From: Pseudomonadota bacterium
Lineage (GTDB): Bacteria > Pseudomonadota > Gammaproteobacteria > Xanthomonadales > Rhodanobacteraceae
Length of the DNA: 64,000 bases
Reading direction: 5' to 3'
Assembly (NCBI GenBank): GCA_021781345.1
Contig: JAJXWZ010000197.1
Location: forward strand, 1,963-65,962
Shown: positions 51,428-64,000 of the stretch, piece by piece
Layout of the letters: the number at the start of each line of letters is the position of its first letter
Numbering within the stretch: the first letter of the stretch is position 1
Made by a program: the position numbers and the translations under genes
Notes under the pieces: generated by a model
The model's database searches: none
The model's input: the letters and a program-made list of their open reading frames with translations, nothing else
What the model was told of the DNA's origin: nothing

Positions 51428-51588
51428 GGTGCGGCTCGCGCTGGCGTCGGATTTTGCGGGGGTCGTGGTCACCACGCGCCGATCATGCTTCGTGCCGGGC
51501 GTACGCACAAGCCCCGGAGTCGTACGCTCGTGCGGGCCGACGCATTGCGCACGCGCATGTGCCCCCGTAAACTAGCCGGTCCGCGTGT

Positions 51589-51661
51589 GCCGGAATAGCT
51601 CAGCTGGTAGAGCAACGCATTCGTAATGCGTGGGTCGGGGGTTCGATTCCCTCTTCCGGCA
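51589..51661 (+). tRNA. tRNA-Thr (anticodon CGU)
   Basis: Hand-folded cloverleaf. Acceptor stem is GCCGGAA/TTCCGGC. D arm is GCTC-AGCTGGTA-GAGC. Anticodon stem is ACGCA/TGCGT with loop TTCGTAA (CGT at 51622-51624). T arm is GGGGG-TTCGATT-CCCTC. Discriminator is A, and the 3' CCA is not encoded. Confidence 0.88.
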
Positions 51662-51748
51662 TATCCCGCCTGCGCATTCGCGCGCCCGCCTTGTGGCCTG
51701 CCTGCCGGCAGGGTAAGTTTGCGCTTCCACGTCTGCCGGGGAGCGACG

Positions 51749-54268: not shown

Positions 54269-56077
54269 TCAGATGGCGTCGCGCACCGCCGCCACGGGCC
54301 CGAATCGCGGAAACCGCGCGAGGATCGCGCGCCGGATGCCGTCGGCATCCAGTCCCGCCTCGGCCAGCAACTGCTCGCGCGAGGCGTGTTCGAGGAACGC
54401 ATCCGGCAGGCCGAGCTGCAGCAGTGGAATCTGGACGCCATGCGCCGAGAGCAGTTCGCTGACGGCCGATCCCGCGCCGCCGGCGACAACGTTGTCCTCG
54501 AGCGTCACCAGCGCGTCGTGCGTGCGTGCCAGTTCCAGCAGCAGCGATTCGTCCAGCGGCTTCACGAAACGCATGTTGACGACACTCGCATCGATTTCGT
54601 CGGCAACGGCAAGCGCCGGCGCCAGTGTGCAGCCGAACGCGAGCATGGCGATGCCGCGCCCGCGCCTGCGCAGCTCCGCCTTGCCGATCGGCAAAGCAGT
54701 CAACGCGGGATCGATGGCGACGCCCGGACCGTCGCCGCGCGGGTACCGGATCGCCGCGGGCCCTTCGTGGCGGTAACCCGTCGTCAGCAACTGCCGGCAC
54801 TCGTTTTCGTCGGCGGGCGCCATCACGACCATGTTCGGGATGCAGCGCAGGTAGCCGAGGTCGAAACTGCCCGCATGGGTCGGACCATCGGGACCGACCA
54901 CGCCGGCGCGATCGATCGCGAAAGTGACGTCCAGGCCCTGCAGCGCGACGTCGTGGATCAACTGATCGTAGGCACGCTGCAGGAAGGTCGAGTAGATCGC
55001 GACCACGGGTTTCACGCCCTCGCAAGCGAGCCCGGCAGCCAGTGTCACGGCATGTTGTTCGGCGATCGCGACGTCGAAATAGCGGTCCGGGAACGCCTGC
55101 GAAAAGCGCACCATGCCGGAACCTTCGCGCATCGCCGGCGTGATCGCCACGAGCCGGGCATCCACCGCGGCCATGTCGCACAGCCAGTCGCCGAACACTT
55201 CACTGTAGGAGGGCGTGCCGGTCGCGGGCTGCGCGACACCCCGCGCGGGGTCGAACCGGCCGACCGCGTGGTATTCGATCTGGGCCCGTTCGGCGTGGAC
55301 GTAGCCCTTGCCCTTGGTCGTGACCACGTGCAGCAGTTGCGGGCCACGCCGGTCCTTCACTTCACGCAGCGCGGCGAGCAACGCCGGCAGGTCGTGGCCG
55401 TCCACCGGACCGCAGTAGGCGAAGCCGAGTTCCTCGAACAACGCTTCGGGATGCGGCCCCGATTCGCCCGCTTCGCCCGCTCGCAGGCGCGCCAGGGTAC
55501 GGTCCAGGCCGCCTACGTTTTCGCTGATCGACATGCCGTTGTCGTTCAATACCACCAGCATGTCGGGCGCTACGCCGCCCGCATGGTTCAGGGCCTCGTA
55601 GGCCATGCCGCCGGTGATCGCGCCGTCGCCGATTACGGCCACCACCTTGCGGTGATCGCCGGCGCGCTGCAGCGCGATGGCCATGCCCAGCGCCGCGGAA
55701 ATGGATGTCGAGGCGTGGCCGACGCCGAACGTGTCGTATCGGCTTTCCGCGCGTGACGGAAACGGCGCCAGCCCGTCCTTCTTCTTGATGCTGGTGATGC
55801 GGTCGCGGCGTGCGGTGAGGATCTTGTGCGGGTAGCTTTGGTGGCCGACGTCCCAGACCAGGCGATCGCGCGGCGTGTCGTACAGATAGTGCAGGGCGAG
55901 AGTCAACTCGACCACGCCGAGTCCGGCGCCGAAGTGCCCGCCGACGCTCGCCACCGACTCGATCAGGTACGCGCGCAACTCGTCCGCGACCTTCGGGAGT
56001 TCCGCTTCGGAAAGCCGCCTCAGGTCTTCCGGCGAATCGACGCGGGCCAGCAGTGGATAGCGATTGCGATCGATCAT
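54269..56077 (-). CDS. dxs: 1-deoxy-D-xylulose-5-phosphate synthase
   Basis: 602-aa [23 protein letters not shown]...[19 protein letters not shown]...[11 protein letters not shown]...[19 protein letters not shown]. This is classic Dxs. Confidence 0.95.
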
Positions 56078-56121: not shown

Positions 56122-58080
56122 TCAGGACGCCTTCGCCTTGCCTGGCGCTTGCGCGCGCTTGCCGAACCGGCGCGCGAAGGTCTGCCGGATGCGGATCTGG
56201 CGATTGGTGTCGCGCATCTCGCGGATGCGGCGGCTGTTGGCCGCCATCACGTCACTGCGGGTCAGGATGCCGATCATGCGCCAGGGATCGTCGCGTGCGA
56301 CCACGACCAGCCGGCCCACGTTTTCGGCCACCATCAGGTCGGCCGCCTCGCGCAGGTTGTGGTCCTCGAACACCACGATCGGTGGCCGCCTCAACATGTC
56401 GCCGATGCGGGTGAGGCCCGGCTTGTCCGGATCCAGCAGGTCGCGCCGCGTGATCACGCCGCGCACGCGTCCGGCATCGTCGAGCACCGGATAGCCCTGG
56501 TGCTGCGCGCGCTCGCGGCCGGAGTTCATCCACTGCCGTACCTCGCCCAATTCGTCCGATGTCCGCAGCGCGCGCACGTCGTGGACGCACACCTTGCCCA
56601 CCGGCACCTGCTCGAGGAAGTCGGCCGAGTATTCGCTGGGTACCTTGATGCCGCGACGTGCGATCTTCTCGGTCATGATGGTGTTGCGCATCATCAGCGC
56701 CGAGATCAGGTACGCGGCCGTGCAGCCGCCCAGCAATGGCAACAGGCCTGCCGGCTGGTGGGTCGTCTCGAACGCGAACACGATCGAGGTGAGCAGTGCG
56801 CGTGAGGATCCGGCGAACATCGCGGCCATCCCGACCAGCGCGGCGATGCGCAGGTCGATGCCGAGGGACGGCCAGGCATGGCCGAAACCGGACGCGAGCA
56901 ACGCACCCAGCGCACCGCCGATCATGAACAGTGGTGCCAGCGTGCCGCCGGAGGTGCCGCTGCCCAGCGAAATCACCCACGAGACGAATTTGAGGATGCA
57001 CAGCGACAGCAGTACCTGCAGCCCGAAGTGCCCCTGTACCAACCCGTCGATGTTGTCGTAGCCGACACCCAGCGTGTTGGGCGCGAAGTAGCCGACCAGT
57101 CCCGCCGCCAGTCCGCCGATCGCGGGCCACCACATCCAGTGCACCGGCAGCTTCTCGAACAGGTCCTCGACCTTGTAGACGGCCTTGGTGACCCACACGC
57201 TGGCGTACCCGACCAGCGCGCCGAGCAGGATGTAACTCGCGAGCGCCCAGCCGCCGGGTTCCGCGATCGCCGGCATCGCGAACACCGCGCCTGATCCGAA
57301 CGTCGCATAGCGCACGCCGGTCGCGGTGACGCAGGCCAATGCCACCGGGATCAGCGAACTCGGACGCAGTTCGAACAGCAGCAACTCCACCGCCATCACC
57401 ACCGAGGCCACCGGCGCGCCGAATACCGCCGACATGCCAGCGGCGGCGCCGGCGGCCAGCAGCACCTTGCGTTCCTGCGCGGTGATGTCAAGGAACTGGC
57501 CCAGCAGCGAACCCAGCGCGCCGCCGGTCGAGATGATCGGTCCCTCGGCACCGAACGGGCCGCCGGTGCCGATCGCGAACGCCGACGACAGCGGCTTGAG
57601 CCAGGTGACGCGCGCGGGGATGGTGGATTCGTGCTCGAGCACGCGCTCCATCGCTTCCGGGATGCCGTGGCCCTGGATCGCGCGCGAACCCCAGCGCGCC
57701 ATGATCCCGGCGATCAGGCCGCCGATGGCGGGAATCACGATCACCCACGGCCCGAGATGGTTGTACGCGGGCGACAGGATCCCGGTGTGCCGGGGTGCCA
57801 GCGGCCCGATCACGTCGGACACGCGGCCGTAGAAGAAGATGTCGGTGAACAGGTTTATCAGCAGCAGCAGGACCTGCGCCACGCCGGCCGCGACCGCGCC
57901 CAGCAGGACCGCCATCAGGCTGATCAGCAGCACCCGCCGCGAAACCAGGGTCGATTCACGCGGCATGCGCGCGGCGTCGAGCGTGGAGCCCAGCGAGGGT
58001 GAGACCGGCAGCGCGTCGGTGCTGCCGGTGGTGCGGACGCTGGCGTTCTCGCGGGGCGTTGGGGTGTCTTGCGGGCTCAT
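56122..58080 (-). CDS. ClC-family chloride channel/antiporter with C-terminal CBS pair
   Basis: 652-aa ORF. ClC selectivity motifs are [20 protein letters not shown] and [14 protein letters not shown]. The C-terminal roughly 150 aa is CBS-like ([11 protein letters not shown]..., [18 protein letters not shown]). Confidence 0.9.
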
Positions 58081-58165
58081 CGGTGGCTCATGGACGGCGA
58101 CTGCTGCGATGCAGCATATCCGGCGCGACCATCGTGGCCAAGGGCGGCAGGCGGTCGTCGGCGCT

Positions 58166-58786
58166 TCAGGCCGCGGGACGCCGGTTGCGCGGCAGGTGGT
58201 GGACCAGGAACTCCATCTGGTCGGCCAGGATGTTGCGGTTGGACAGGATCAGGTGCTCGACCCAGCTCGGCTTGTACGGCACCGCGAGCAGGGGCATGCC
58301 GGCCTGCTGCGGCGTGCGTCCACCCTTCCTCAAATTGCAGGCCAGGCAGGCGGACACCACGTTCTCCCAGACGTCGCGACCGCCGCGCGACAGCGGCGCG
58401 ACATGGTCGCGCGTGAGTTCGTTTCGCGAACAATGCCTGCCGCAGTACAGGCACAGGTAACGGTCGCGCGCGAACAGCGCCGCGTTGCTGAGCGCGGGCG
58501 AGGGATCGATCGCGCTGCTGTGGCACTGGCCGCGGCTGGCAACGATCGGATGCAGCGCCAGCAGGCTCTGCTCGCCGGTTTCGCGGCGGAATCCGCCGTG
58601 CAGGGTCAGGCACGGCTCGCCCAGCGTCCAGGCCACCGCATCACGCACGTACAGGCAGGCCGCGTCCTGCCAGCTGATCCAGTCGAGGATGCGCCCGCCG
58701 GCGTCGAGCGAGAGCACGCGCGTGGTGTGCAGATCCGCGATGGCGCACCCGACGTGTTCGATGGAGCTGGCTGTGTGCGAGTCCAT
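58166..58786 (-). CDS. HNH endonuclease family protein
   Basis: ATG 58786 (MDSHTASS) inside ORF 58166..59032. The HNH/Zn-finger core is CLYCGRHCSRNELTRDHVAPLSRGGRDVWENVVSACLACNLRKGGRT. Confidence 0.8.
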   Translation of the reverse strand: MDSHTASSIEHVGCAIADLHTTRVLSLDAGGRILDWISWQDAACLYVRDAVAWTLGEPCLTLHGGFRRETGEQSLLALHPIVASRGQCHSSAIDPSPALSNAALFARDRYLCLYCGRHCSRNELTRDHVAPLSRGGRDVWENVVSACLACNLRKGGRTPQQAGMPLLAVPYKPSWVEHLILSNRNILADQMEFLVHHLPRNRRPAA

Positions 58787-59004
58787 GACCGGCGCAGCAT
58801 AGAACAAATTTGTTGCAGGACGCCAGCAGCTGGCCGCGTCCGGTGGACCGGCGGTTTGCCAGCCGCGAGTCTTGATCCTGGTTGGAGGCGCTGCCCCTGC
58901 TGGAGCGGCTACCGGCGGGTTGCCTGCCGGCGGATCGGTGCTTGCGCTATGCTTCGGGAACGCAAGGTTGCGGCACCCGTGAAGATCGAAGGGGGCTGGC
59001 ACGC

Positions 59005-60798
59005 ATGGCAGACGTTTTCGTGTCGTACGCACGCGCCGACAAGGCTCGCGTCGCGCCGCTGGTGGCCGCGATCGAAGCGAAGGGCTGGTCGGTGTGGTGG
59101 GACCCCGAGATCAGCCCGGGCCAGGAATTCGACGACCAGATCGACGCAGAGATCGACGCGGCCAAGGCCGTGCTGGTGGTTTGGACGCCGACCTCGGTGG
59201 CCTCGCGCTGGGTACGCGGCGAGGCGCGCGAGGCGGCCGATCGGGGCGTGCTGGTGCCCGTGCGGTTCGAGCTGGCGCGCCTGCCGATGGACGTGCGCGC
59301 GATCCATACCACCGACCTCGACGACTGGCGCGAGGATCCTGCGCATCCCGCTGTGCTGGAATGCCTGAATGCGCTGGCCGCGATGATCGCGCGCGCGGAT
59401 GCCGCGCTGGCGGCGAAAAAGGCCGCCGACGCGCCCGCCACGAGAGCCGGCAAGGAGGCTGCGAGTTTCTCGATCTGCGTGTTGCCCTTCGTCAACATGA
59501 GCGGCGATCCCGAGCAGGAGTATTTCAGCGACGGCATCACCGAGGACATCATCACCGACCTCAGCAAGGTGTCGGCGCTGGAAGTCGTCTCGCGCAACGG
59601 TTCATTCCTGTACAAGGGCAGGCAGGTCGACGTGCCCAAGGTCGCGCACGACCTCAAGGTCACGCACGTGCTGGAAGGCAGCGTGCGCAGGGCCGGCGGC
59701 CGCGTGCGGATCAGCGCCCAGTTGATCGACGGCACCAGCAACCGGCACGTGTGGGCCGAGCGTTACGACCGCGATGCCAGCGACATCTTCGCGTTGCAGG
59801 ACGAGATTTCCCACGCCATCGTCAAGGCCCTGAAATTACGGCTGCTGCCATCCGAGAAGAAGGCCATCGAGCGGCGCGGTACAGACAGCGTGGAAGCCCA
59901 TGACCTGTACCTGATGGCGCGGCAGACGTACGTCAACAACCAGGAGGACCTGCGTTCCGCCCAGGCGATCGTTCGCCTGTGTACCCGGGCGACCGAGATC
60001 GATCCCCAATACGCGCCGGCGTGGGCACTCATGGCCATGGGCTTTCGCAGCCTGCGCGAGTGGGGTGTGCAATCGGAGGACGGCATGGCGGCGGCCGAGC
60101 GCGCGCTGGCCATCAACCCGGATCTGGCCGAGGCCCATGCGGTCAAGGCCTACATCCTGTTGATGAAGGACGAAACCGACGCGGCAGCGCAGGAAATAGA
60201 CATCGCGCTGAAGCTGGATCCCGAGTCCTATGAGGCCAATCGCTCGGCGGGGCGCCTGAACTACCTTCTGCACGACTACGAAACAGCCATCGCGCGCTAC
60301 GAGAAGGCCGTCAGCCTGATGGAAGCCGACCTCAATTCGGCGGGAATGCTGATCGCCTGCTACAAGGTGCTGGGCAACGACGCAGGTTTGCGCCGATCCG
60401 CCGAGTTCGCGTTGCATCGCGCGGAGGGCATCCTTGCCCGTGACCAGAACAATTCGAGCGCGCTGGTCTACAGCGCCTATGCGTTGGCTTCGTTGGGTGA
60501 GGGTGAACGCGCCAAGACCCGCATGAACCGCGCGATCGTGATCGATCCTGAAAACTGGGACATGCGCTACAACTTCGCATGTGCCCTGAACTGCTACCTG
60601 CACGAACAGGAAGCCGCGCTGGAAATGCTCAAGCCGCTGTTCGGCGAGATTACCGGTTCATTCCTGCGCTATCTGAAAGCCGATCCCGACCTCAAATCGC
60701 TCCACGGCGACCCGCGTTTCCAGGCTTTGGTCGCCTCCGCGGAGGCGCGTCTGGCGGCGGCGAAGGCCGGCGTGCCACCGGCACCGGAGACCGCCTGA
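59005..60798 (+). CDS. TIR domain protein fused to a TolB-N-terminal-like (COG5616-type) module and TPR repeats, paralogue 1
   Basis: ATG 59005 inside ORF 58882..60798. The N-terminal roughly 140 aa are TIR-like (MADVFVSYARADK, GWSVWWDPEISPG, VLVVWTPTSVASRWVRGEAREA). The middle module is SICVLPFVNMSGDPEQEYFSDGITEDIITDLSKV...THVLEGSVRRAGGRVRISAQLID...HVWAERYD. The C-terminal roughly 300 aa are TPR-like helical repeats. Confidence 0.8.
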   Translation: MADVFVSYARADKARVAPLVAAIEAKGWSVWWDPEISPGQEFDDQIDAEIDAAKAVLVVWTPTSVASRWVRGEAREAADRGVLVPVRFELARLPMDVRAIHTTDLDDWREDPAHPAVLECLNALAAMIARADAALAAKKAADAPATRAGKEAASFSICVLPFVNMSGDPEQEYFSDGITEDIITDLSKVSALEVVSRNGSFLYKGRQVDVPKVAHDLKVTHVLEGSVRRAGGRVRISAQLIDGTSNRHVWAERYDRDASDIFALQDEISHAIVKALKLRLLPSEKKAIERRGTDSVEAHDLYLMARQTYVNNQEDLRSAQAIVRLCTRATEIDPQYAPAWALMAMGFRSLREWGVQSEDGMAAAERALAINPDLAEAHAVKAYILLMKDETDAAAQEIDIALKLDPESYEANRSAGRLNYLLHDYETAIARYEKAVSLMEADLNSAGMLIACYKVLGNDAGLRRSAEFALHRAEGILARDQNNSSALVYSAYALASLGEGERAKTRMNRAIVIDPENWDMRYNFACALNCYLHEQEAALEMLKPLFGEITGSFLRYLKADPDLKSLHGDPRFQALVASAEARLAAAKAGVPPAPETA

Positions 60799-60858
60799 TG
60801 GTCGCCACCCGACCCGCGTGCCCGGCCTTGGCAATGGCGGACAGCGAAGGTAGAACCC

Positions 60859-62658
60859 ATGGCTGATGTTTTCATTTCCTACGCCCGCGCCGACAAGGCG
60901 CGCGTCACGCCGCTGGTAGCAGCGATCGAGGCCAGGGGCTGGTCGGTGTGGTGGGATCCGGAGATCAGCCCGGGCAAGGAGTTCGACGACGAGATCGACG
61001 AAGCGCTGCAGGCCGCCAAGGCGGTGCTGGTGGTGTGGACGCCGATTTCGGTCGTGTCGCGCTGGGTGCGCGGGGAGGCGCGCGATGCCGCCGAGCGCGG
61101 GGTGCTGGTTCCGGTGAGGTTCGACCAGGCGCGGCTGCCGATCGACGTACGCGCGATCCATACCACCGACCTTGACGACTGGGGCGAGGATCCAGCGCAT
61201 CCCGCGTTGCAGGAATGCCTGCACGCACTGGCCGCCATGATCGCGCGCACCGAGGCGCGTTCGGCCACGGCGGAAACCGCTACTGCCAAGTCCGGATCGC
61301 AAGCCGATTCCAGACGCTTCTCCGTATGCGTGCTGCCTTTCATCAACATGAGCGGCGATCCCGAGCAAGAGTATTTCAGCGATGGCATCACCGAGGACAT
61401 CATCACCGACCTAAGCAAGGTGTCGGCGCTGGCCGTCGCGTCCAGCAACAGCGCCTTTACGTACAAGGGCAGGCACGCGGACATCCAGAAGGTCGTGCGT
61501 GACCTCAAGGTGACGCACGTGCTCGAAGGCAGCGTGCGCAAGGCAGGCGGACGGGTGCGGATCAACGCGCAGTTGATCGACGGTAAGACCAACAACCACG
61601 TGTGGGCCGAGCGCTACGATCGAGACGCCAGCGACATCTTCGCGATCCAGGACGAGATCTCGCAGGCCATCGTCAAGGCGCTCAAATTGCGCCTGCTGCC
61701 TGCCGAAAAGAAGGCGATCGAACGGCGCGGTACCGACAGCGTCGAGGCATACAACCTCTTCCTGATGGCGAGGCAAGCTTATGTGTCCAGCCAGGATTCC
61801 GACGCGCGCAACGCACAAACCATCATCCGGCTTTGCGCCCGCGCAACTGAAATCGACCCTCGCTATGCGCAAGCCTGGGCGCTCATGGCCATCGGCCACA
61901 GGGGATTGCGTGAAGCGCAGGGTGGTGGCGCCGACGATGGCATGCGGGCCGCAAATAAGGCCTTGGCCCTGGATCCCGATCTGGCCGAAGCCCATGCCGT
62001 CAAAGCCCAGCTGTTGCAAGCGGATGGCCATGCCGGCGAGGCGGCGGCCGAGGTTGCGGTTGCGCTCGACCTGGACGCAGGGTCCTACGAGGTCAACCGT
62101 GCGGCCGGACGCTTGAACTACTTGCTCCAGAGGTACGAGGACGCTGCCCGCTTCTACGAAAAGTCGGCAGGGTTGATGGAGACGGACATCAATTCGGTCT
62201 CGATGCTGATCAGCTGCTATACCGCAATGGGGAACGCGACGGGCGTGCGCCACGCGGCCGAACTGGCCGTCAAGCGTGCCGAAGCCATCCTGGCTCGCGA
62301 CCAGAACAATGCCGGTGTCATGCTCTACAGCGCCTATGCACTTTCGGCACTTGGCGAAGGCGAACGGGCCAAGGCGCGCATGAGCCATGCATTGCTGATC
62401 GACCCCGACAATTTCAACATGCGCTACAACTTCGCGTGTGCCCTGAGCGTTCATCTGAAGGACAAAGACGCCGCACTCGAAATGCTTGCCCCGGTATTTG
62501 CGACGATGACCGATGCCTTCATGCCATTCGCGATCGCCGACCCGGATCTGGACCTGGTTCGCGATGATCCCCGCTACCAGGCCATGGTCGCGGCCGCCGA
62601 GGCACGCCTGGCGGCGGCGAAGGATCCGGCGGCACCGGCGGGCAGGCAGCCCGTCTAG
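60859..62658 (+). CDS. TIR domain protein fused to a TolB-N-terminal-like module and TPR repeats, paralogue 2
   Basis: 599-aa ORF, collinear with paralogue 1. Long identical blocks include MSGDPEQEYFSDGITEDIITDLSKVSAL, DLKVTHVLEGSVR and HVWAERYDRDASDIFA. It has the same TIR N-terminus, MADVFISYARADK...SRWVRGEARDAA. Confidence 0.8.
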   Translation: MADVFISYARADKARVTPLVAAIEARGWSVWWDPEISPGKEFDDEIDEALQAAKAVLVVWTPISVVSRWVRGEARDAAERGVLVPVRFDQARLPIDVRAIHTTDLDDWGEDPAHPALQECLHALAAMIARTEARSATAETATAKSGSQADSRRFSVCVLPFINMSGDPEQEYFSDGITEDIITDLSKVSALAVASSNSAFTYKGRHADIQKVVRDLKVTHVLEGSVRKAGGRVRINAQLIDGKTNNHVWAERYDRDASDIFAIQDEISQAIVKALKLRLLPAEKKAIERRGTDSVEAYNLFLMARQAYVSSQDSDARNAQTIIRLCARATEIDPRYAQAWALMAIGHRGLREAQGGGADDGMRAANKALALDPDLAEAHAVKAQLLQADGHAGEAAAEVAVALDLDAGSYEVNRAAGRLNYLLQRYEDAARFYEKSAGLMETDINSVSMLISCYTAMGNATGVRHAAELAVKRAEAILARDQNNAGVMLYSAYALSALGEGERAKARMSHALLIDPDNFNMRYNFACALSVHLKDKDAALEMLAPVFATMTDAFMPFAIADPDLDLVRDDPRYQAMVAAAEARLAAAKDPAAPAGRQPV

Positions 62659-62690
62659 CGAGCGGGTCCGACGCGGCTCGTGGACTTCGG

Positions 62691-64000
62691 CTACATCTTG
62701 CCGGCTTCCAGCGGCCGCTGGCGATGCATCACCGCCCACTCCACGTGTTCGGAGAGCGAGGTTTCGCCCAGCATGCGCAGGATCTCGCGTTGCTCCTCGA
62801 GGTCCTGGCTGGCGTCCAGCCGCTGGCGTGCATTGGCAAACACGCGTTCCATGAACCGGTACTGGCGGATCAATTCACGGTCGGCCTTGCGGAACGAATA
62901 GGCCTCGCGCACCGCGGCGAAGATCGAGAACACCGCCATCACCACAATCAGGTCGTTCTTGAGGTCGGTGGTCAGCCAGTGCATCAGCACGGTCAGCGCG
63001 ACGCTGATGAAGATGCCGGCCATCAGGCAGATCGCGCCGATCATCTCGTTGATGCGGTGGGCGCGTTCGCGCTGTTCCGTCCGGCGGCGGTAGTAACCGA
63101 GCTCACCGCTGGTGTCGTCGCCGACCCATTCGCCGATCACCTTTTCCAGGGCGGCGGCGTCGTGCGCCGGGGCGTGGGCGCCTCCGGCGAGGCCCGCGCC
63201 GCGCATCACGTTGCGCACCCAGCCCAGTTCGATGTCCTGCTTCTGCATCAGGCTGTCGTGCGCGAACTCGGGATCGGTGGTCAGTGAAATCCCGACGCGC
63301 CGCCAGTAGCACTGCACCCTCAGGCCTTCGGCGAGCGCGCGGTAATCGAGGTACTTGCGGTGCCAGGCGCGCCGCCGCGCGATGCCGCTGATGACCACGC
63401 CGGATGCGAACAGGAACAGGAACACGTACAGCATGTGGTCCTGGTCGGGCAGGTTGTCGTACATCGTGAACGCCATGCCCATCACGAACGCGACCAGGTA
63501 GATCACCCGCATCGCCAGTTGCACGCGCTTCTGGAAGTGGATCGCCAGCCAGTCGGCGGCGCGGAACAGCGCCGCGGGCGTCGCCAGCGAATCGTCGTGG
63601 CCGGTCGCCGGGGCGTCGTCCTCGATGCCGGTGCTCCAGGCCGCGATGCGTTCTGCGTATTTGCGGACGTCCACGTTGAATTCGTCGGTGTGCGCGAATA
63701 CGGTCCGGAAATCCTCCGGCATCGGGACATCGGGTTCGGATGCGCCGGTCTGGCTGTGCCAGATCACCTGTCCCGGCTGCAGGTGCGAATGCGGGGCGCC
63801 GTCGTCCGCGTCGCGGGAACAGACGATATGGCAGAGCAGGCGCTCGTCGCCGCCCGAATAAAGCTGTGGTCGGTGCGCGTGCCGGCGGTCGAATTCGCCC
63901 GGGAGGTCGCCGGTCAGGTAATAGTGGACGATCTGCGCCGTGCCGCCCAGACGGTCGGACGGCTTGCCGTCCCAGATCGCCAGCAGCAAGTGGCAATGGC
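62691..64000 (-). CDS. Membrane protein with two successive 2-TM (SLATT/DUF4231-like) modules behind a LOG/SLOG-like segment, 5'-truncated by the window end
   Basis: The reading frame is open to position 64000; the M at 63989 in the track is a CTG/TTG artefact. Visible domains, N- to C-terminal: ...HCHLLLAIWDGKPSDRLGGTAQIVHYY; module 1 (AALFRAADWLAIHFQKR, TM VIYLVAFVMGMAFTMY, TM MLYVFLFLFASGVVISGIA, then WHRKYLDYRALAEGLR); module 2 (GYYRRRTEQRERAHR, TM IGAICLMAGIFISVALTVLMHWL, TM LIVVMAVFSIFAAV, then REAYSFRKADRELIRQYRF). The family assignment is by pattern recognition only. Confidence 0.55.
   Translation of the reverse strand, partial: HCHLLLAIWDGKPSDRLGGTAQIVHYYLTGDLPGEFDRRHAHRPQLYSGGDERLLCHIVCSRDADDGAPHSHLQPGQVIWHSQTGASEPDVPMPEDFRTVFAHTDEFNVDVRKYAERIAAWSTGIEDDAPATGHDDSLATPAALFRAADWLAIHFQKRVQLAMRVIYLVAFVMGMAFTMYDNLPDQDHMLYVFLFLFASGVVISGIARRRAWHRKYLDYRALAEGLRVQCYWRRVGISLTTDPEFAHDSLMQKQDIELGWVRNVMRGAGLAGGAHAPAHDAAALEKVIGEWVGDDTSGELGYYRRRTEQRERAHRINEMIGAICLMAGIFISVALTVLMHWLTTDLKNDLIVVMAVFSIFAAVREAYSFRKADRELIRQYRFMERVFANARQRLDASQDLEEQREILRMLGETSLSEHVEWAVMHRQRPLEAGKM

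Follow-up and report, generated by a model that had tools for sequence, protein, structure and literature searches.

The right-hand end of the 64,000-nucleotide stretch of Rhodanobacteraceae DNA analysed here (the window) is probably the edge of a multi-TIR, Thoeris-like signalling island with a SLOG-2xSLATT effector at its core. The edge cuts a cluster of ~13 kb in this soil bacterium, which looks like a Thoeris-type anti-phage alarm system, with several TIR signal-makers around one nucleotide-sensing four-helix membrane protein. The gene content, gene order and domain folds of the core module are established by the data, and the features lying within the window are the following.

58166..58786, minus strand: HNH endonuclease gene, 206 aa, divergent from TIR-TPR gene 1
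59005..60798, plus strand: TIR-TPR gene 1, 597 aa, from the ORF list with Pfam/NCBIfam matches
59005..59409, plus strand: gene 1 TIR domain, aa 1-135, motif S67-R-W-V-R-G-E73
59470..59859, plus strand: gene 1 CadC/TolB_N-like alpha/beta domain, aa 156-285
60859..62658, plus strand: TIR-TPR gene 2, 599 aa, tandem paralogue of gene 1
60859..61263, plus strand: gene 2 TIR domain, Pfam TIR_2
62659..62690, no strand: spacer between two convergent stop codons, exactly 32 bp, counted in the sequence
62691..64000, minus strand: 3' 1310 nt of the SLOG-2xSLATT effector-like gene, ~aa 173-607 of 607, translation-checked coordinates
62721..63107, minus strand: SLATT module B, with TM3 at 62985..63050 and TM4 at 62901..62969
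63297..63578, minus strand: SLATT module A, with TM1 at 63459..63518 and TM2 at 63372..63440
63630..64000, minus strand: C-terminal half of the SLOG domain, including W-D-G-K...G-G-T-A-Q

The arrangement given in the initial annotation, of two same-strand TIR paralogues with a convergent 3' neighbour 32 bp away and an HNH gene upstream, is present, and its remark that the composition is not strikingly foreign agrees with a G+C of 0.64-0.68 at the locus, similar to the remaining window. A consensus scan found no terminator-like site in 62659..62690. The HNH product matches Pfam HNH_5 (E 3e-14). This gene lies beside ClC/dxs with or without TIR-TPR genes (L012, L023-27, L033, L096, L100), adjoins GNAT in L018, and is absent from every locus read outside the ClC/dxs flank context. 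It either stays with that flank or moves alone; we accordingly regard the nuclease, correctly placed divergently upstream, as a neighbour and reject it as a system component.

The effector-like gene is, as had been recognised, cut by the window edge, and its full 607 aa were recovered from contig L001 (99.9% identity across 1401 nt). The protein begins with a SLOG-superfamily fold most similar to YpsA and DprA, after which come two 2-TM SLATT modules with four TM helices in total. The AF2 model (pLDDT 79.4, pTM 0.81) exceeds pLDDT 90 over ~aa 40-140 of the SLOG fold, for which the best Foldseek match was YpsA (2nx2; E 9e-4, TM 0.65). The top domain-level PDB matches all belong to the SLOG superfamily (YpsA, DprA, ShosA, MoCo carrier, LOG-like proteins and ThsA SLOG), and the BcThsA SLOG domain bound to 3'cADPR was matched with probability 0.85. 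The earlier LOG/SLOG-like call, made from the GG-T strand-loop LLLAIWDGKPSDRLGGTAQIV that is indeed found in the minus-strand product, is borne out by the modelled fold; since no Pfam SLOG-family HMM matches the N-domain, the call rests on that prediction. Glycine-rich loops are typical of the SLOG fold, and four are invariant in 53 homologues: G45-x-T-x-H-R, S84-x-L-A-x-G-x-D-Q, W181-D-G-K and G190-G-T-A-Q. The two modules of helix, 2-TM and Tyr/Arg-rich helix are likewise real, as evidenced by Pfam DUF4231 scores (cut-off 24.7) of 27.5 bits when only the part inside the window is taken and 26.1 bits with the complete effector. SLATT_3 and SLATT_1 (Pfam, NCBIfam) were all sub-threshold on this protein, and among 53 homologues DUF4231 was matched in all 53, SLATT_3 in 49 and SLATT_1 in 15. 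The inter-TM loops are only 6 and 5 residues long and the hairpins are succeeded by basic stretches, which puts the SLOG domain on the cytosolic side. No PADLOC model matched the effector.

Beyond position 64000 the effector proves to be operonic, contrary to the original view of it as convergent rather than operonic and paired with the window's TIR genes: it closes a minus-strand run ordered TIR762 - small134 - TIR743 - small135 - effector, and its regular partners are these own-strand TIR genes. Both operon TIRs (762 and 743 aa) join a TIR domain to a TPR-like sensor, and each is followed by a small beta-rich gene (134 and 135 aa). Of the 66 Rhodanobacteraceae effector loci whose flank reaches 3 kb or more, 56 carry a 740-760-aa TIR gene within 4 kb, and the remaining 10, e.g. 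Rhodanobacter ginsengisoli, have no TIR within that distance. A distant effector relative in a 7.8-Mb genome (L093) is preceded by two other TIR genes and has a relaxase and integrases next to it, and another (L094) is preceded by an nSTAND1-TPR NTPase. The flanking TIR genes at 56 of 66 loci, together with the two in L093, bear out the proposed logic of TIR signal, SLOG sensor and membrane effector. The motif W-V-x-x-E is kept in 73 of 74 large operon-type TIRs, and in 52 of the 74 a small-family gene follows on the same strand less than 400 bp downstream. The small proteins end in an invariant [D/N]-P-x-I-K-N tail and each accompanies its TIR gene; their most likely role is that of a partner dedicated to the TIR, whether as regulator, as guarded decoy or as a peptide that the TPR part binds.

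The window's own TIR genes are of a different build. Pfam TIR_2 matches the start of both proteins (gene 1 E 5.8e-24, gene 2 E 1.9e-23; 84-85 bits against a cut-off of 28), confirming the TIR assignment. SRWVRGEAR occurs in both and is invariant across 56 homologues, with E73 falling in the alignment column that holds the catalytic Glu of BcThsB, of one type III Thoeris TIR and of two type VII Thoeris TIRs. The catalytic glutamate position was therefore correctly recognised, but the motif reads S-x-W-x-x-x-E and so has one residue more than the S-x-W-x-x-E first given. The TolB-N-like and TPR content also holds: NCBIfam matched the middle region to CadC (E 2e-7) and the TolB N-terminus (E 6e-6), and both proteins match TPR families in Pfam, gene 1 matching TPR_17 among others as well as NCBIfam TPR_END_plus. 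The C-terminal part of gene 1 is a helical/TPR sensor extending to the C-terminus; its AF2 model (pLDDT 74.5 overall, above 90 in the TPR) retrieved TPR proteins and the CadC periplasmic domain 3ly9 in Foldseek. The two proteins are 70% identical over 580 aa (84% at DNA level in 300-nt blocks, ~1854 nt apart), with identity dropping from 82% in the TIR and 83% in the middle domain to 58-59% in the TPR; faster divergence of the TPR (59%) than of the TIR (82%) is expected of a sensor surface. Exact copies of the gene 2 protein occur on three further assemblies (L001-L003).

Whether these two genes serve the effector bears on the principal alternative, which we consider possible but unlikely: the window's TIR-TPR proteins would be self-contained sensor-effectors, in which the CadC/TolB_N-like and TPR parts sense a cue and the TIR depletes NAD+ or signals to a target encoded elsewhere, the SLOG-SLATT protein would be served only by its own-operon large TIRs, and the adjacency would reflect a shared variable, defence-island-like spot. 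Linkage of the window's TIR-TPR family to the effector is no more than facultative: genes of this type occur at 10 of 69 effector loci and are absent from 59, including loci in the same context (L012, L023-27, L033), and the reverse is seen in an 85% identical locus (L096) that reads ClC-HNH-TIRTPR-TIRTPR-PrsW without an effector within 8 kb. No SLOG-SLATT neighbour was found, even at E<=10, beside 80 metagenomic TIR-TPR relatives (44-85% identity; 52 of the 80 with 2 kb or more of flank to one side, 445 kb of flank in total), nor did any neighbour family recur in more than three of these loci; the search HMM also recovers the distant effector homologues in L092-L094 and is thus sensitive enough. 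Further in keeping with autonomous action, the sensor module is a generic scaffold, 50-60% identical to that of adenylate-cyclase-headed proteins (9 of 10 tested) and a winged-helix regulator (1 of 10), tandem TIR-TPR arrays are common (six copies in L010, five in L151, three in L154), and the best PADLOC matches of the window TIRs are not to ThsB but to TIRs of the effector or single-gene type (SAVED-TIR, PDC-S66). Yirmiya et al. also caution that a TIR whose type is unverified may be an effector that depletes NAD+ (10.64898/2025.12.03.692087).

Against such independence, the convergent TIR-TPR/effector junction, with spacers of ~31-180 bp, recurs in L004, L016, L017, L020, L029 and L090 and is kept in at least three flank contexts (ClC/dxs; the L015/16/17/29/57 group; L020), of which L020 lacks a large TIR gene, so that TIR-TPR genes are the only TIRs seen there. 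SLOG-2xSLATT adjoins TIR-TPR on all three long contigs sampled among the closest homologues, and L092 has a TIR-TPR gene, 78% identical, with a divergent SLOG-2xSLATT paralogue of its own (29% identity, E 4e-60) 37 bp downstream on the same strand. The faster divergence of the TPR noted above was also taken as a sign that these genes belong. Co-occurrence of TIR-TPR genes with the 2-TM gene is seen at these recurrent junctions and in the L092 operon, but not at the 59 loci or beside the 80 metagenomic relatives above. We posit that the window's genes are accessory sensors, placed tail-to-tail with the effector in one sub-clade, through which the one effector probably receives additional inputs; alternatively they may work independently of it. 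Counted against the island reading, for the window genes specifically, is that they are convergent and not co-transcribed with the effector, as are the 59 loci without them, the copies lacking a SLOG-SLATT neighbour and their PADLOC matches.

The effector family numbers 1727 clusters (50% identity) at E<=1e-30, almost all matched over their full length, a size counted in favour of the island reading; it is almost absent from viral contigs. At least 577 species-representative genomes carry the subfamily; the best 80 of these loci are almost all Rhodanobacteraceae-type, with identity falling from 74% to 51% roughly along taxonomy, a conservation that most defence systems do not reach. This distribution of the subfamily, the native G+C, the scarcity in viral contigs, the effector genes standing alone in some genomes and a sensor scaffold common to cyclases and transcription factors would also fit a conserved Rhodanobacteraceae physiological pathway that is not primarily immune. 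The TIR would then be a second-messenger synthase in the adenylate cyclase's place on the same scaffold, and SLOG-2xSLATT a reversibly gated channel adjusting ion flux or membrane potential to an environmental cue, formally resembling ADPR-gated TRPM2, which likewise has a SLOG domain at its N-terminus; TRPM4 and TRPM8 appear, with low probability, in the effector's Foldseek list. We regard this as improbable, however, given ~27 flank contexts among 80 species (the best 80 of at least 577), which show that the module is not fixed at one housekeeping position, a TIR complement that ranges from none to at least 8 copies at a locus, the presence nearby of IS110, of toxin-antitoxin genes and of a relaxase with integrases, tandem TIR multiplication with sensor parts diverging faster than the TIR, and the anti-phage role of all characterised bacterial TIR + SLOG and TIR + SLATT pairings (10.64898/2025.12.03.692087).

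Under the favoured reading of a Thoeris-like island, a TIR protein would sense a phage-infection cue through its TPR part, and its TIR domain, via the conserved glutamate, would convert NAD+ to an ADP-ribose-derived signal; binding of this signal by the SLOG domain may cause the four TM helices to oligomerise or open, depolarising or breaching the membrane and leading to growth stop or cell death before the phage cycle completes. Precedent comes from described systems (10.64898/2025.12.03.692087): SLOG is the signal receptor in type I Thoeris, type III brings several TIRs together with a SLOG effector, and type VII, validated by Yirmiya et al. 2025 as TIR + SLATT, has a cADPR-gated SLATT effector. 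The nearest described candidate to SLOG-2xSLATT is 'SLOG and 4TM', listed in the same preprint from Streptomyces and Ca. Nitrospira, which gave no defence in E. coli. That failure, the lack of a PADLOC effector model, the missing Pfam SLOG match, the TIR-less loci and the conservation were counted against the island reading. The domain combination is not as new as initially supposed, given this 2025 candidate and the SLOG/SLATT coupling predicted by Burroughs et al. 2015, as cited in PMC7159879. The design of a SLOG + SLATT membrane effector was thus already predicted in the literature, and the locus is probably a variant of the Thoeris-like kind.

The minus-strand gene cut by the window edge encodes a putative membrane effector (the SLOG-2xSLATT effector), the regular partners of which are large TIR genes on its own strand beyond position 64000 and not, as the initial annotation had proposed, the two TIR-TPR genes that converge on it within the window. 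Both TIR ORFs of the window are present as described, as tandem paralogues with TIR_2 and TPR matches in Pfam, and the convergent gene does lie 32 bp past the second of them and runs beyond the window. The G+C content is unremarkable, in agreement with the earlier remark that it does not look foreign. The genes concerned are as follows, with the last two lines referring to L001, the public contig that continues the window.

58166..58786, minus strand, HNH gene
59005..60798, plus strand, TIR-TPR gene 1, ORF of 597 aa
60859..62658, plus strand, TIR-TPR gene 2, ORF of 599 aa, tandem paralogue of gene 1
62691 to beyond 64000, minus strand, SLOG-2xSLATT effector gene
L001:3964-4371, minus strand, small gene (alignment A4)
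L001:6901-7305, minus strand, small gene (alignment A4)

Three public contigs (L001-L003) encode exactly the protein of TIR-TPR gene 2. One of them, L001, shares 1401 nt with the window at 99.9% identity and was therefore used as its continuation; the effector gene completed from it encodes 607 aa. An AF2 model of this protein built on 53 homologues (pLDDT 79.4, pTM 0.81) shows an alpha/beta domain at residues 40-290, with pLDDT >90 over roughly aa 40-140 and less confident loops. Comparison of the model with the PDB using Foldseek gave top domain-level matches that all belong to the SLOG superfamily:

YpsA, 2nx2, E 9.3e-4, TM 0.65 on the target
several DprA structures; ShosA; MoCo carrier protein; LOG-like proteins 1rcu and 1weh
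SLOG domain of ThsA (BcThsA) with bound 3'cADPR, 7uxs, probability 0.85

The glycine-rich loops of the domain, comprising G/T/H/R, G-x-D-Q, W-D-G-K and G-G-T motifs, are invariant across homologues. Curated SLOG models (Pfam, NCBIfam) did not match the N-terminal domain at E<=0.1, and the effector profile recovered noise only from all PDB chain sequences (E 0.34). Since no curated sequence model matches, the SLOG call rests on the predicted fold, by which the N-terminal domain is a predicted member of the SLOG superfamily with a Rossmann-like fold of the LOG/DprA/YpsA type. The remainder of the chain is made up of two 2-TM hairpins with flanking helices. Module A matches DUF4231 with 26-27.5 bits (cut-off 24.7) and is above threshold in all 53 homologues, 49 of which also match Pfam SLATT_3 below its cut-off, while module B reaches a sub-threshold 34.5-35.8 bits with NCBIfam SLATT_1 (cut-off 41) and matches Pfam SLATT_1 in 15 of the 53; SLATT_6 matches below threshold as well. 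The SLATT half of the earlier SLOG/SLATT proposal was thus borne out by profile searches, whereas the SLOG half failed with sequence models and was recovered by fold comparison. Very short inter-TM loops (6 and 5 residues), combined with Arg/Lys-rich segments after each hairpin, suggest that the SLOG domain should face the cytosol.

The effector family comprises 8766 cluster representatives at E<=1e-3 and 1727 clusters (50% identity) at E<=1e-30, and nearly all of the best 150 cluster representatives span the full length. One family member of 847 aa (P0275) appears to combine a double-SLATT region with a C-terminal esterase domain and to have no SLOG domain, which may represent either a variant architecture or a gene-calling fusion. 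Scans of viral contigs with both alignments detected a single effector-like ORF, incomplete because it lies at the end of its contig, and two TolB_N-TPR proteins that lack a TIR domain.

Upstream of the effector and on the same strand, L001 encodes a 135-aa protein, a 743-aa TIR protein, a 134-aa protein and a 762-aa TIR protein with TPRs, followed by housekeeping genes for a GNAT acetyltransferase and an acyl-CoA dehydrogenase. These upstream genes make the effector gene operonic with TIR genes that lie outside the window; the initial annotation, which called it convergent and not operonic, was right with respect to the window pair but not beyond it. The 743- and 762-aa proteins match both TIR_2 and ThsB_TIR. 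Relatives of the effector were found in at least 577 genomes (one genome per species), and for the best 80 of these, 51-74% identical, six-frame ORFs of the loci were searched with the proteins of the present locus. This best-matching subset comes from Rhodanobacter, Dyella, Rudaea, Luteibacter and Dokdonella and includes many MAGs. A TIR gene encoding 740-760 aa lies within 4 kb of the effector in 56 of the 66 loci that have 3 kb or more of upstream-side flank (from the best 80 of at least 577), nearly always directly upstream and divergent in four cases, and W-V-x-x-E is kept in 73 of 74 large TIRs. Ten loci, including that of Rhodanobacter ginsengisoli, have the effector without a TIR within 4 kb.

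A small-family gene follows the large TIR gene on the same strand within 400 bp in 52 of 74 cases. This family covers both the 134- and the 135-aa protein and has beta-rich members of 106-170 aa with an invariant C-terminal [D/N]-P-x-I-K-N tail; searches of Pfam and NCBIfam assigned it to no family and gave scattered weak beta-sandwich matches (BatD, Cna_B, Glucodextran_B). Where the TIR-plus-small cassette is duplicated or lies beyond the far side of the effector (contigs L018 and L058), the small gene still trails its TIR gene, and we therefore read it as the partner of the TIR protein and not of the effector.

The flanks of the effector module fall into about 27 groups among the 80 loci (best 80 of at least 577), and the idea of a housekeeping gene at a fixed position was rejected on that ground. 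In one contig (L004:2485-3453) an IS110-family transposase separates GNAT from the first TIR gene, and genes for BrnT/BrnA and PIN toxin-antitoxins occur just upstream of the module in three others (L007-L009; L007:4896-6121). A distant SLOG-2xSLATT gene (630 aa) in a 7.8-Mb genome follows two unrelated TIR genes (L093:3683-9893), one of which carries a fusion with 3-keto-disaccharide-hydrolase (ConA-like) domains; two integrases and a TrwC relaxase adjoin this set, which is therefore probably located on an integrative element. In a Steroidobacteraceae MAG (L094:4605-10228) a SLOG-2xSLATT gene begins 22 bp past the gene for an nSTAND1-TPR NTPase (1124 aa), the 205-aa N-terminus of which has no domain assignment, and is followed by an 8xMP membrane-protein gene. 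This set is a STAND-driven, not a TIR-driven, version of the effector module.

The TIR-TPR pair in the window belongs to a different TIR family from the large TIRs of the operon. Each of the two genes matches Pfam TIR_2 with ~84 bits (E about 1e-23, cut-off 28) as well as several Pfam TPR families, and in both the region between TIR and TPR matches the NCBIfam CadC and TolB N-terminus models. The AF2 model (pLDDT 74.5, >90 in the TPR part) has its structural matches among TPR proteins and in the periplasmic domain of CadC. The SRWVRGEAR motif is invariant in 56 of 56 window-type TIR homologues, and its Glu shares an alignment column with the catalytic Glu of B. cereus ThsB (BcThsB), of one type III Thoeris TIR and of two type VII TIRs. 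Motif and glutamate had been correctly recognised, but the spacing initially given as S-x-W-x-x-E is one residue longer, S-x-W-x-x-x-E. The paralogues are 70% identical as proteins, and their DNA is 84% identical in 300-nt blocks at a spacing of ~1854 nt. Identity is 59% in the TPR part versus 82% in the TIR, a pattern that is expected of a diversifying sensor.

The number of TIR-CadC/TolB_N-TPR genes per locus ranges from one to at least six, and long tandem arrays were observed with at least six copies in L010:11885-21732, five in L151:2781-14529 and three in L154:6414-11749. Contigs of three independent assemblies start ~110-200 bp upstream of TIR-TPR gene 2 (L001:1-122, L002:1-112, L003:1-200), suggesting that the 84%-identical tandem paralogues interrupt assembly from short reads and, as a consequence, that TIR-TPR copy number in MAGs may be underestimated. 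Promoter and terminator scans of 58000..64000 gave no more matches than shuffled sequence.

The pairing of these TIR-TPR genes with the effector, put forward from the window, was upheld in part. The tail-to-tail junction recurs in the ClC/dxs context (the window, L004, L011, L013, L019, L090 and L091), in a second context (L015, L016, L017, L029 and L057) and in L020, which lacks any large TIR. Further evidence comes from L092, where a four-gene TIR-TPR array, including one gene 78% identical to gene 1, is followed 37 bp on and on the same strand by a divergent SLOG-2xSLATT paralogue (29% identical to the effector of the window over its full length, E 4e-60). Against this, window-type TIR-TPR genes occur at only 10 of 69 effector loci and are missing from other loci of the same context (L012, L023-27 and L033), and a pair 85% identical to that of the window stands beside HNH and ClC with no effector within 8 kb (L096). 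Among 80 metagenomic TIR-TPR relatives, 52 of them with at least 2 kb of flank and 445 kb in all, no SLOG-SLATT neighbour was detected even at E<=10 with an HMM that does find the distant homologues in L092-L094, nor was there any other recurrent neighbour. The link between the window TIR-TPR genes and the effector is facultative, not obligate. The main rival explanation, under which these genes encode autonomous sensor-NADases that share a variable island with the effector, would fit their solitary occurrence, whereas the recurrent junction and the L092 operon argue for a functional connection; we regard autonomy as possible but doubtful.

The HNH gene was found where the initial annotation had placed it, yet the suggestion that it forms part of the system did not survive comparison. 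It persists beside ClC and dxs with or without the TIR-TPR genes or the effector module, and HNH was not detected outside the GNAT...ClC/dxs context at any examined locus. HNH was rejected as a system component, being tied to the flank context with no conserved linkage to TIR or effector genes. In L018 (L018:5089-5742) it is located between GNAT and a 743-type TIR gene and not beside ClC, and the TIR762-plus-small cassette lies downstream of the effector, showing rearrangement within the island. A tRNA-Val(gac) called by ARAGORN (54283..54374, minus strand, 92 nt) inside the dxs ORF (54269..56077, minus strand) was likewise rejected; it is probably a false positive because it is missing from the results of the Rfam gathering scan. 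Both ARAGORN and Rfam support the tRNA-Thr(cgt) at 51588..51662 (plus strand).

The sensor portion of the window proteins is not exclusive to TIR domains. In the sample of 80 metagenomic relatives, 27 ORFs carry the CadC/TolB_N-like plus TPR module, at 50-60% identity, behind a different N-terminal domain, which was an adenylate cyclase in nine of ten tested and a winged helix in the remaining one. The common module corresponds to residues about 140-590 of the window TIR-TPR proteins. The proteins tested are encoded on the following contigs:

L130, L134, L141, L145, L152, L155, L165, L171, L175: cyclase-bearing scaffold proteins (Guanylate_cyc)
L150: winged-helix scaffold protein (Trans_reg_C)

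The window proteins and these signalling proteins thus have the same sensor module and differ in output, which is a TIR domain here and a cyclase or DNA-binding domain there. As the same module carries a cyclase or a winged helix elsewhere, the TIR has been joined, as an exchangeable output domain, to a sensor scaffold of general use. The TIR versions are annotated as 'adenylate cyclase' by JGI.

By architecture, the closest described item is the putative Thoeris configuration 'SLOG and 4TM' that appears in Tables S1 and S2 of Yirmiya et al. 2025 (bioRxiv, 10.64898/2025.12.03.692087), so the combination is not undescribed, as had initially been assumed. Its sources there are Streptomyces sp. 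GKU 895 and Ca. Nitrospira nitrosa COMA1 (IMG 2862473379, 2691454910), and the two examples, cloned as two genes (short TIR plus effector), gave no defence in E. coli. Likened by description only, the architecture is the same, a TIR gene beside SLOG plus four TM (here SLOG plus 2 x 2 TM). In contrast to the short TIR of those candidates, the TIR proteins here have 600-760 aa with TPR sensors, with up to four TIRs per locus and the large ones mostly followed by the conserved small gene (52/74). The motifs also differ (…CEYELRE… and …CMLEARE… there, SRWVNEE and SRWVRGE here), and the motif strings of this locus have no match in the part of Table S1 that was searched. The Ca. Nitrospira TIR-domain search returned only short TIR proteins, 55-64% identical, and on the one usable contig no effector lies beside the Ca. 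Nitrospira-like TIR, its neighbour being UDP-glucose pyrophosphorylase.

In type VII Thoeris (ThsB plus ThsH), as outlined in the same source, canonical cADPR gates a SLATT effector, which is believed to form oligomers that breach the membrane, with a ligand pocket proposed between the cytoplasmic parts of the SLATT protomers. It has in common with the present locus a TIR signal generator and a SLATT membrane effector; compared with ThsH by architecture only, the effector here adds an N-terminal SLOG domain and a second SLATT module in one chain. Type I is described there as having a SLOG receptor on a SIR2 effector (ThsA), and type III as having several TIRs with a SLOG effector (P. aeruginosa L0872). 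Like these types, the locus has several TIR genes per effector and a SLOG domain that is likely the receptor of the TIR product. In contrast to type I ThsA, the output is a membrane module, with no SIR2 match in the effector, and the SLOG domain resembles YpsA and DprA more than it does ThsA. PADLOC has no model that fits the effector or the small proteins, and its ThsA models found no match. The NCBIfam type III model ThcB4 scored 35-38 bits (38.5 and 35.4) against the TIRs of the locus, far from its cut-off of 220, with the TIR domain alone aligning. Judged by sequence models, the locus falls outside type I and type III Thoeris. Considered against Thoeris in general, a TIR with a conserved catalytic Glu is found in the window pair and in the 743/762-aa proteins, and an adjacent co-oriented effector is found for the 743/762-aa TIR genes, whereas the window pair is convergent to it and facultatively linked. 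The concept of a SLOG nucleotide sensor, a SLATT 2-TM pore-forming effector and a TIR making NAD-derived signals matches the purely computational prediction of SLOG/SLATT conflict systems by Burroughs, Zhang, Schaffer, Iyer and Aravind 2015, in so far as it is cited in PMC7159879. Distinctive here are the fusion of SLOG with a double SLATT served by long TIR-TPR sensors, the conserved small third gene per TIR, the accessory TIR array on a cyclase-type scaffold, and the wide spread over at least 577 species-representative genomes.

What the data show are the genes and their order, the domain assignments, the conserved TIR Glu and SLOG loops, and the linkage statistics; the mechanism is inferred, from Thoeris as set out in 10.64898/2025.12.03.692087 and from the Burroughs et al. 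2015 predictions as cited in PMC7159879. We posit, with moderate confidence, that the island is a Thoeris-like TIR-to-SLOG-to-SLATT abortive infection system. In such a system, TPR sensors would detect an infection cue, TIR domains would convert NAD+ to an ADPR-derived signal, the cytosolic SLOG domain would bind this signal, and the SLATT hairpins would assemble or open, collapsing the membrane barrier and aborting the infection. That the window TIR-TPR genes feed into the same effector is more tentative, about half as probable as the overall model. For the small proteins with the PxIKN tail, the probable role is to control the TIR-TPR partner or to be guarded by it. C-terminal peptides are common ligands of TPR grooves, and it is a matter of speculation that the tail is one of them.

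A bolder version of this model, which we consider unlikely, is a three-component TIR system in which each large TIR-TPR protein is checked by, or guards, its own beta-sandwich small protein through the [D/N]-P-x-I-K-N tail as TPR peptide ligand; release would allow the TIR to make an ADPR-derived, possibly new signal. TRPM2 is ADPR-gated, and the SLOG-2xSLATT protein would be its bacterial counterpart, a SLOG-gated channel integrating several TIR families including that of the window. Improbable, finally, is a non-immune signalling role, even though the module is widespread, identities roughly track taxonomy and effector-only genomes exist.

Thoeris types I, III and VII provide, according to 10.64898/2025.12.03.692087, established cases of signalling from TIR to SLOG and from TIR to SLATT, while the type in which a SLOG sensor is fused to a four-TM SLATT output is a candidate still to be verified. 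The genes that make up the family's module are now defined, among them a small partner gene previously unnoted. If this gene is required, it might explain the failure of the two-gene 'SLOG and 4TM' constructs described in that source, provided those systems carry one too. The locus further shows that TIR-sensor proteins of two unrelated classes can be encoded around a single effector, and the TIR in place of an adenylate cyclase on a common scaffold illustrates cleanly how TIR behaves as an exchangeable output domain for second messengers. Rhodanobacter, Dyella and Luteibacter offer culturable hosts for the native system which, should it prove ordinary, would still add to the Thoeris types that act through a membrane effector.
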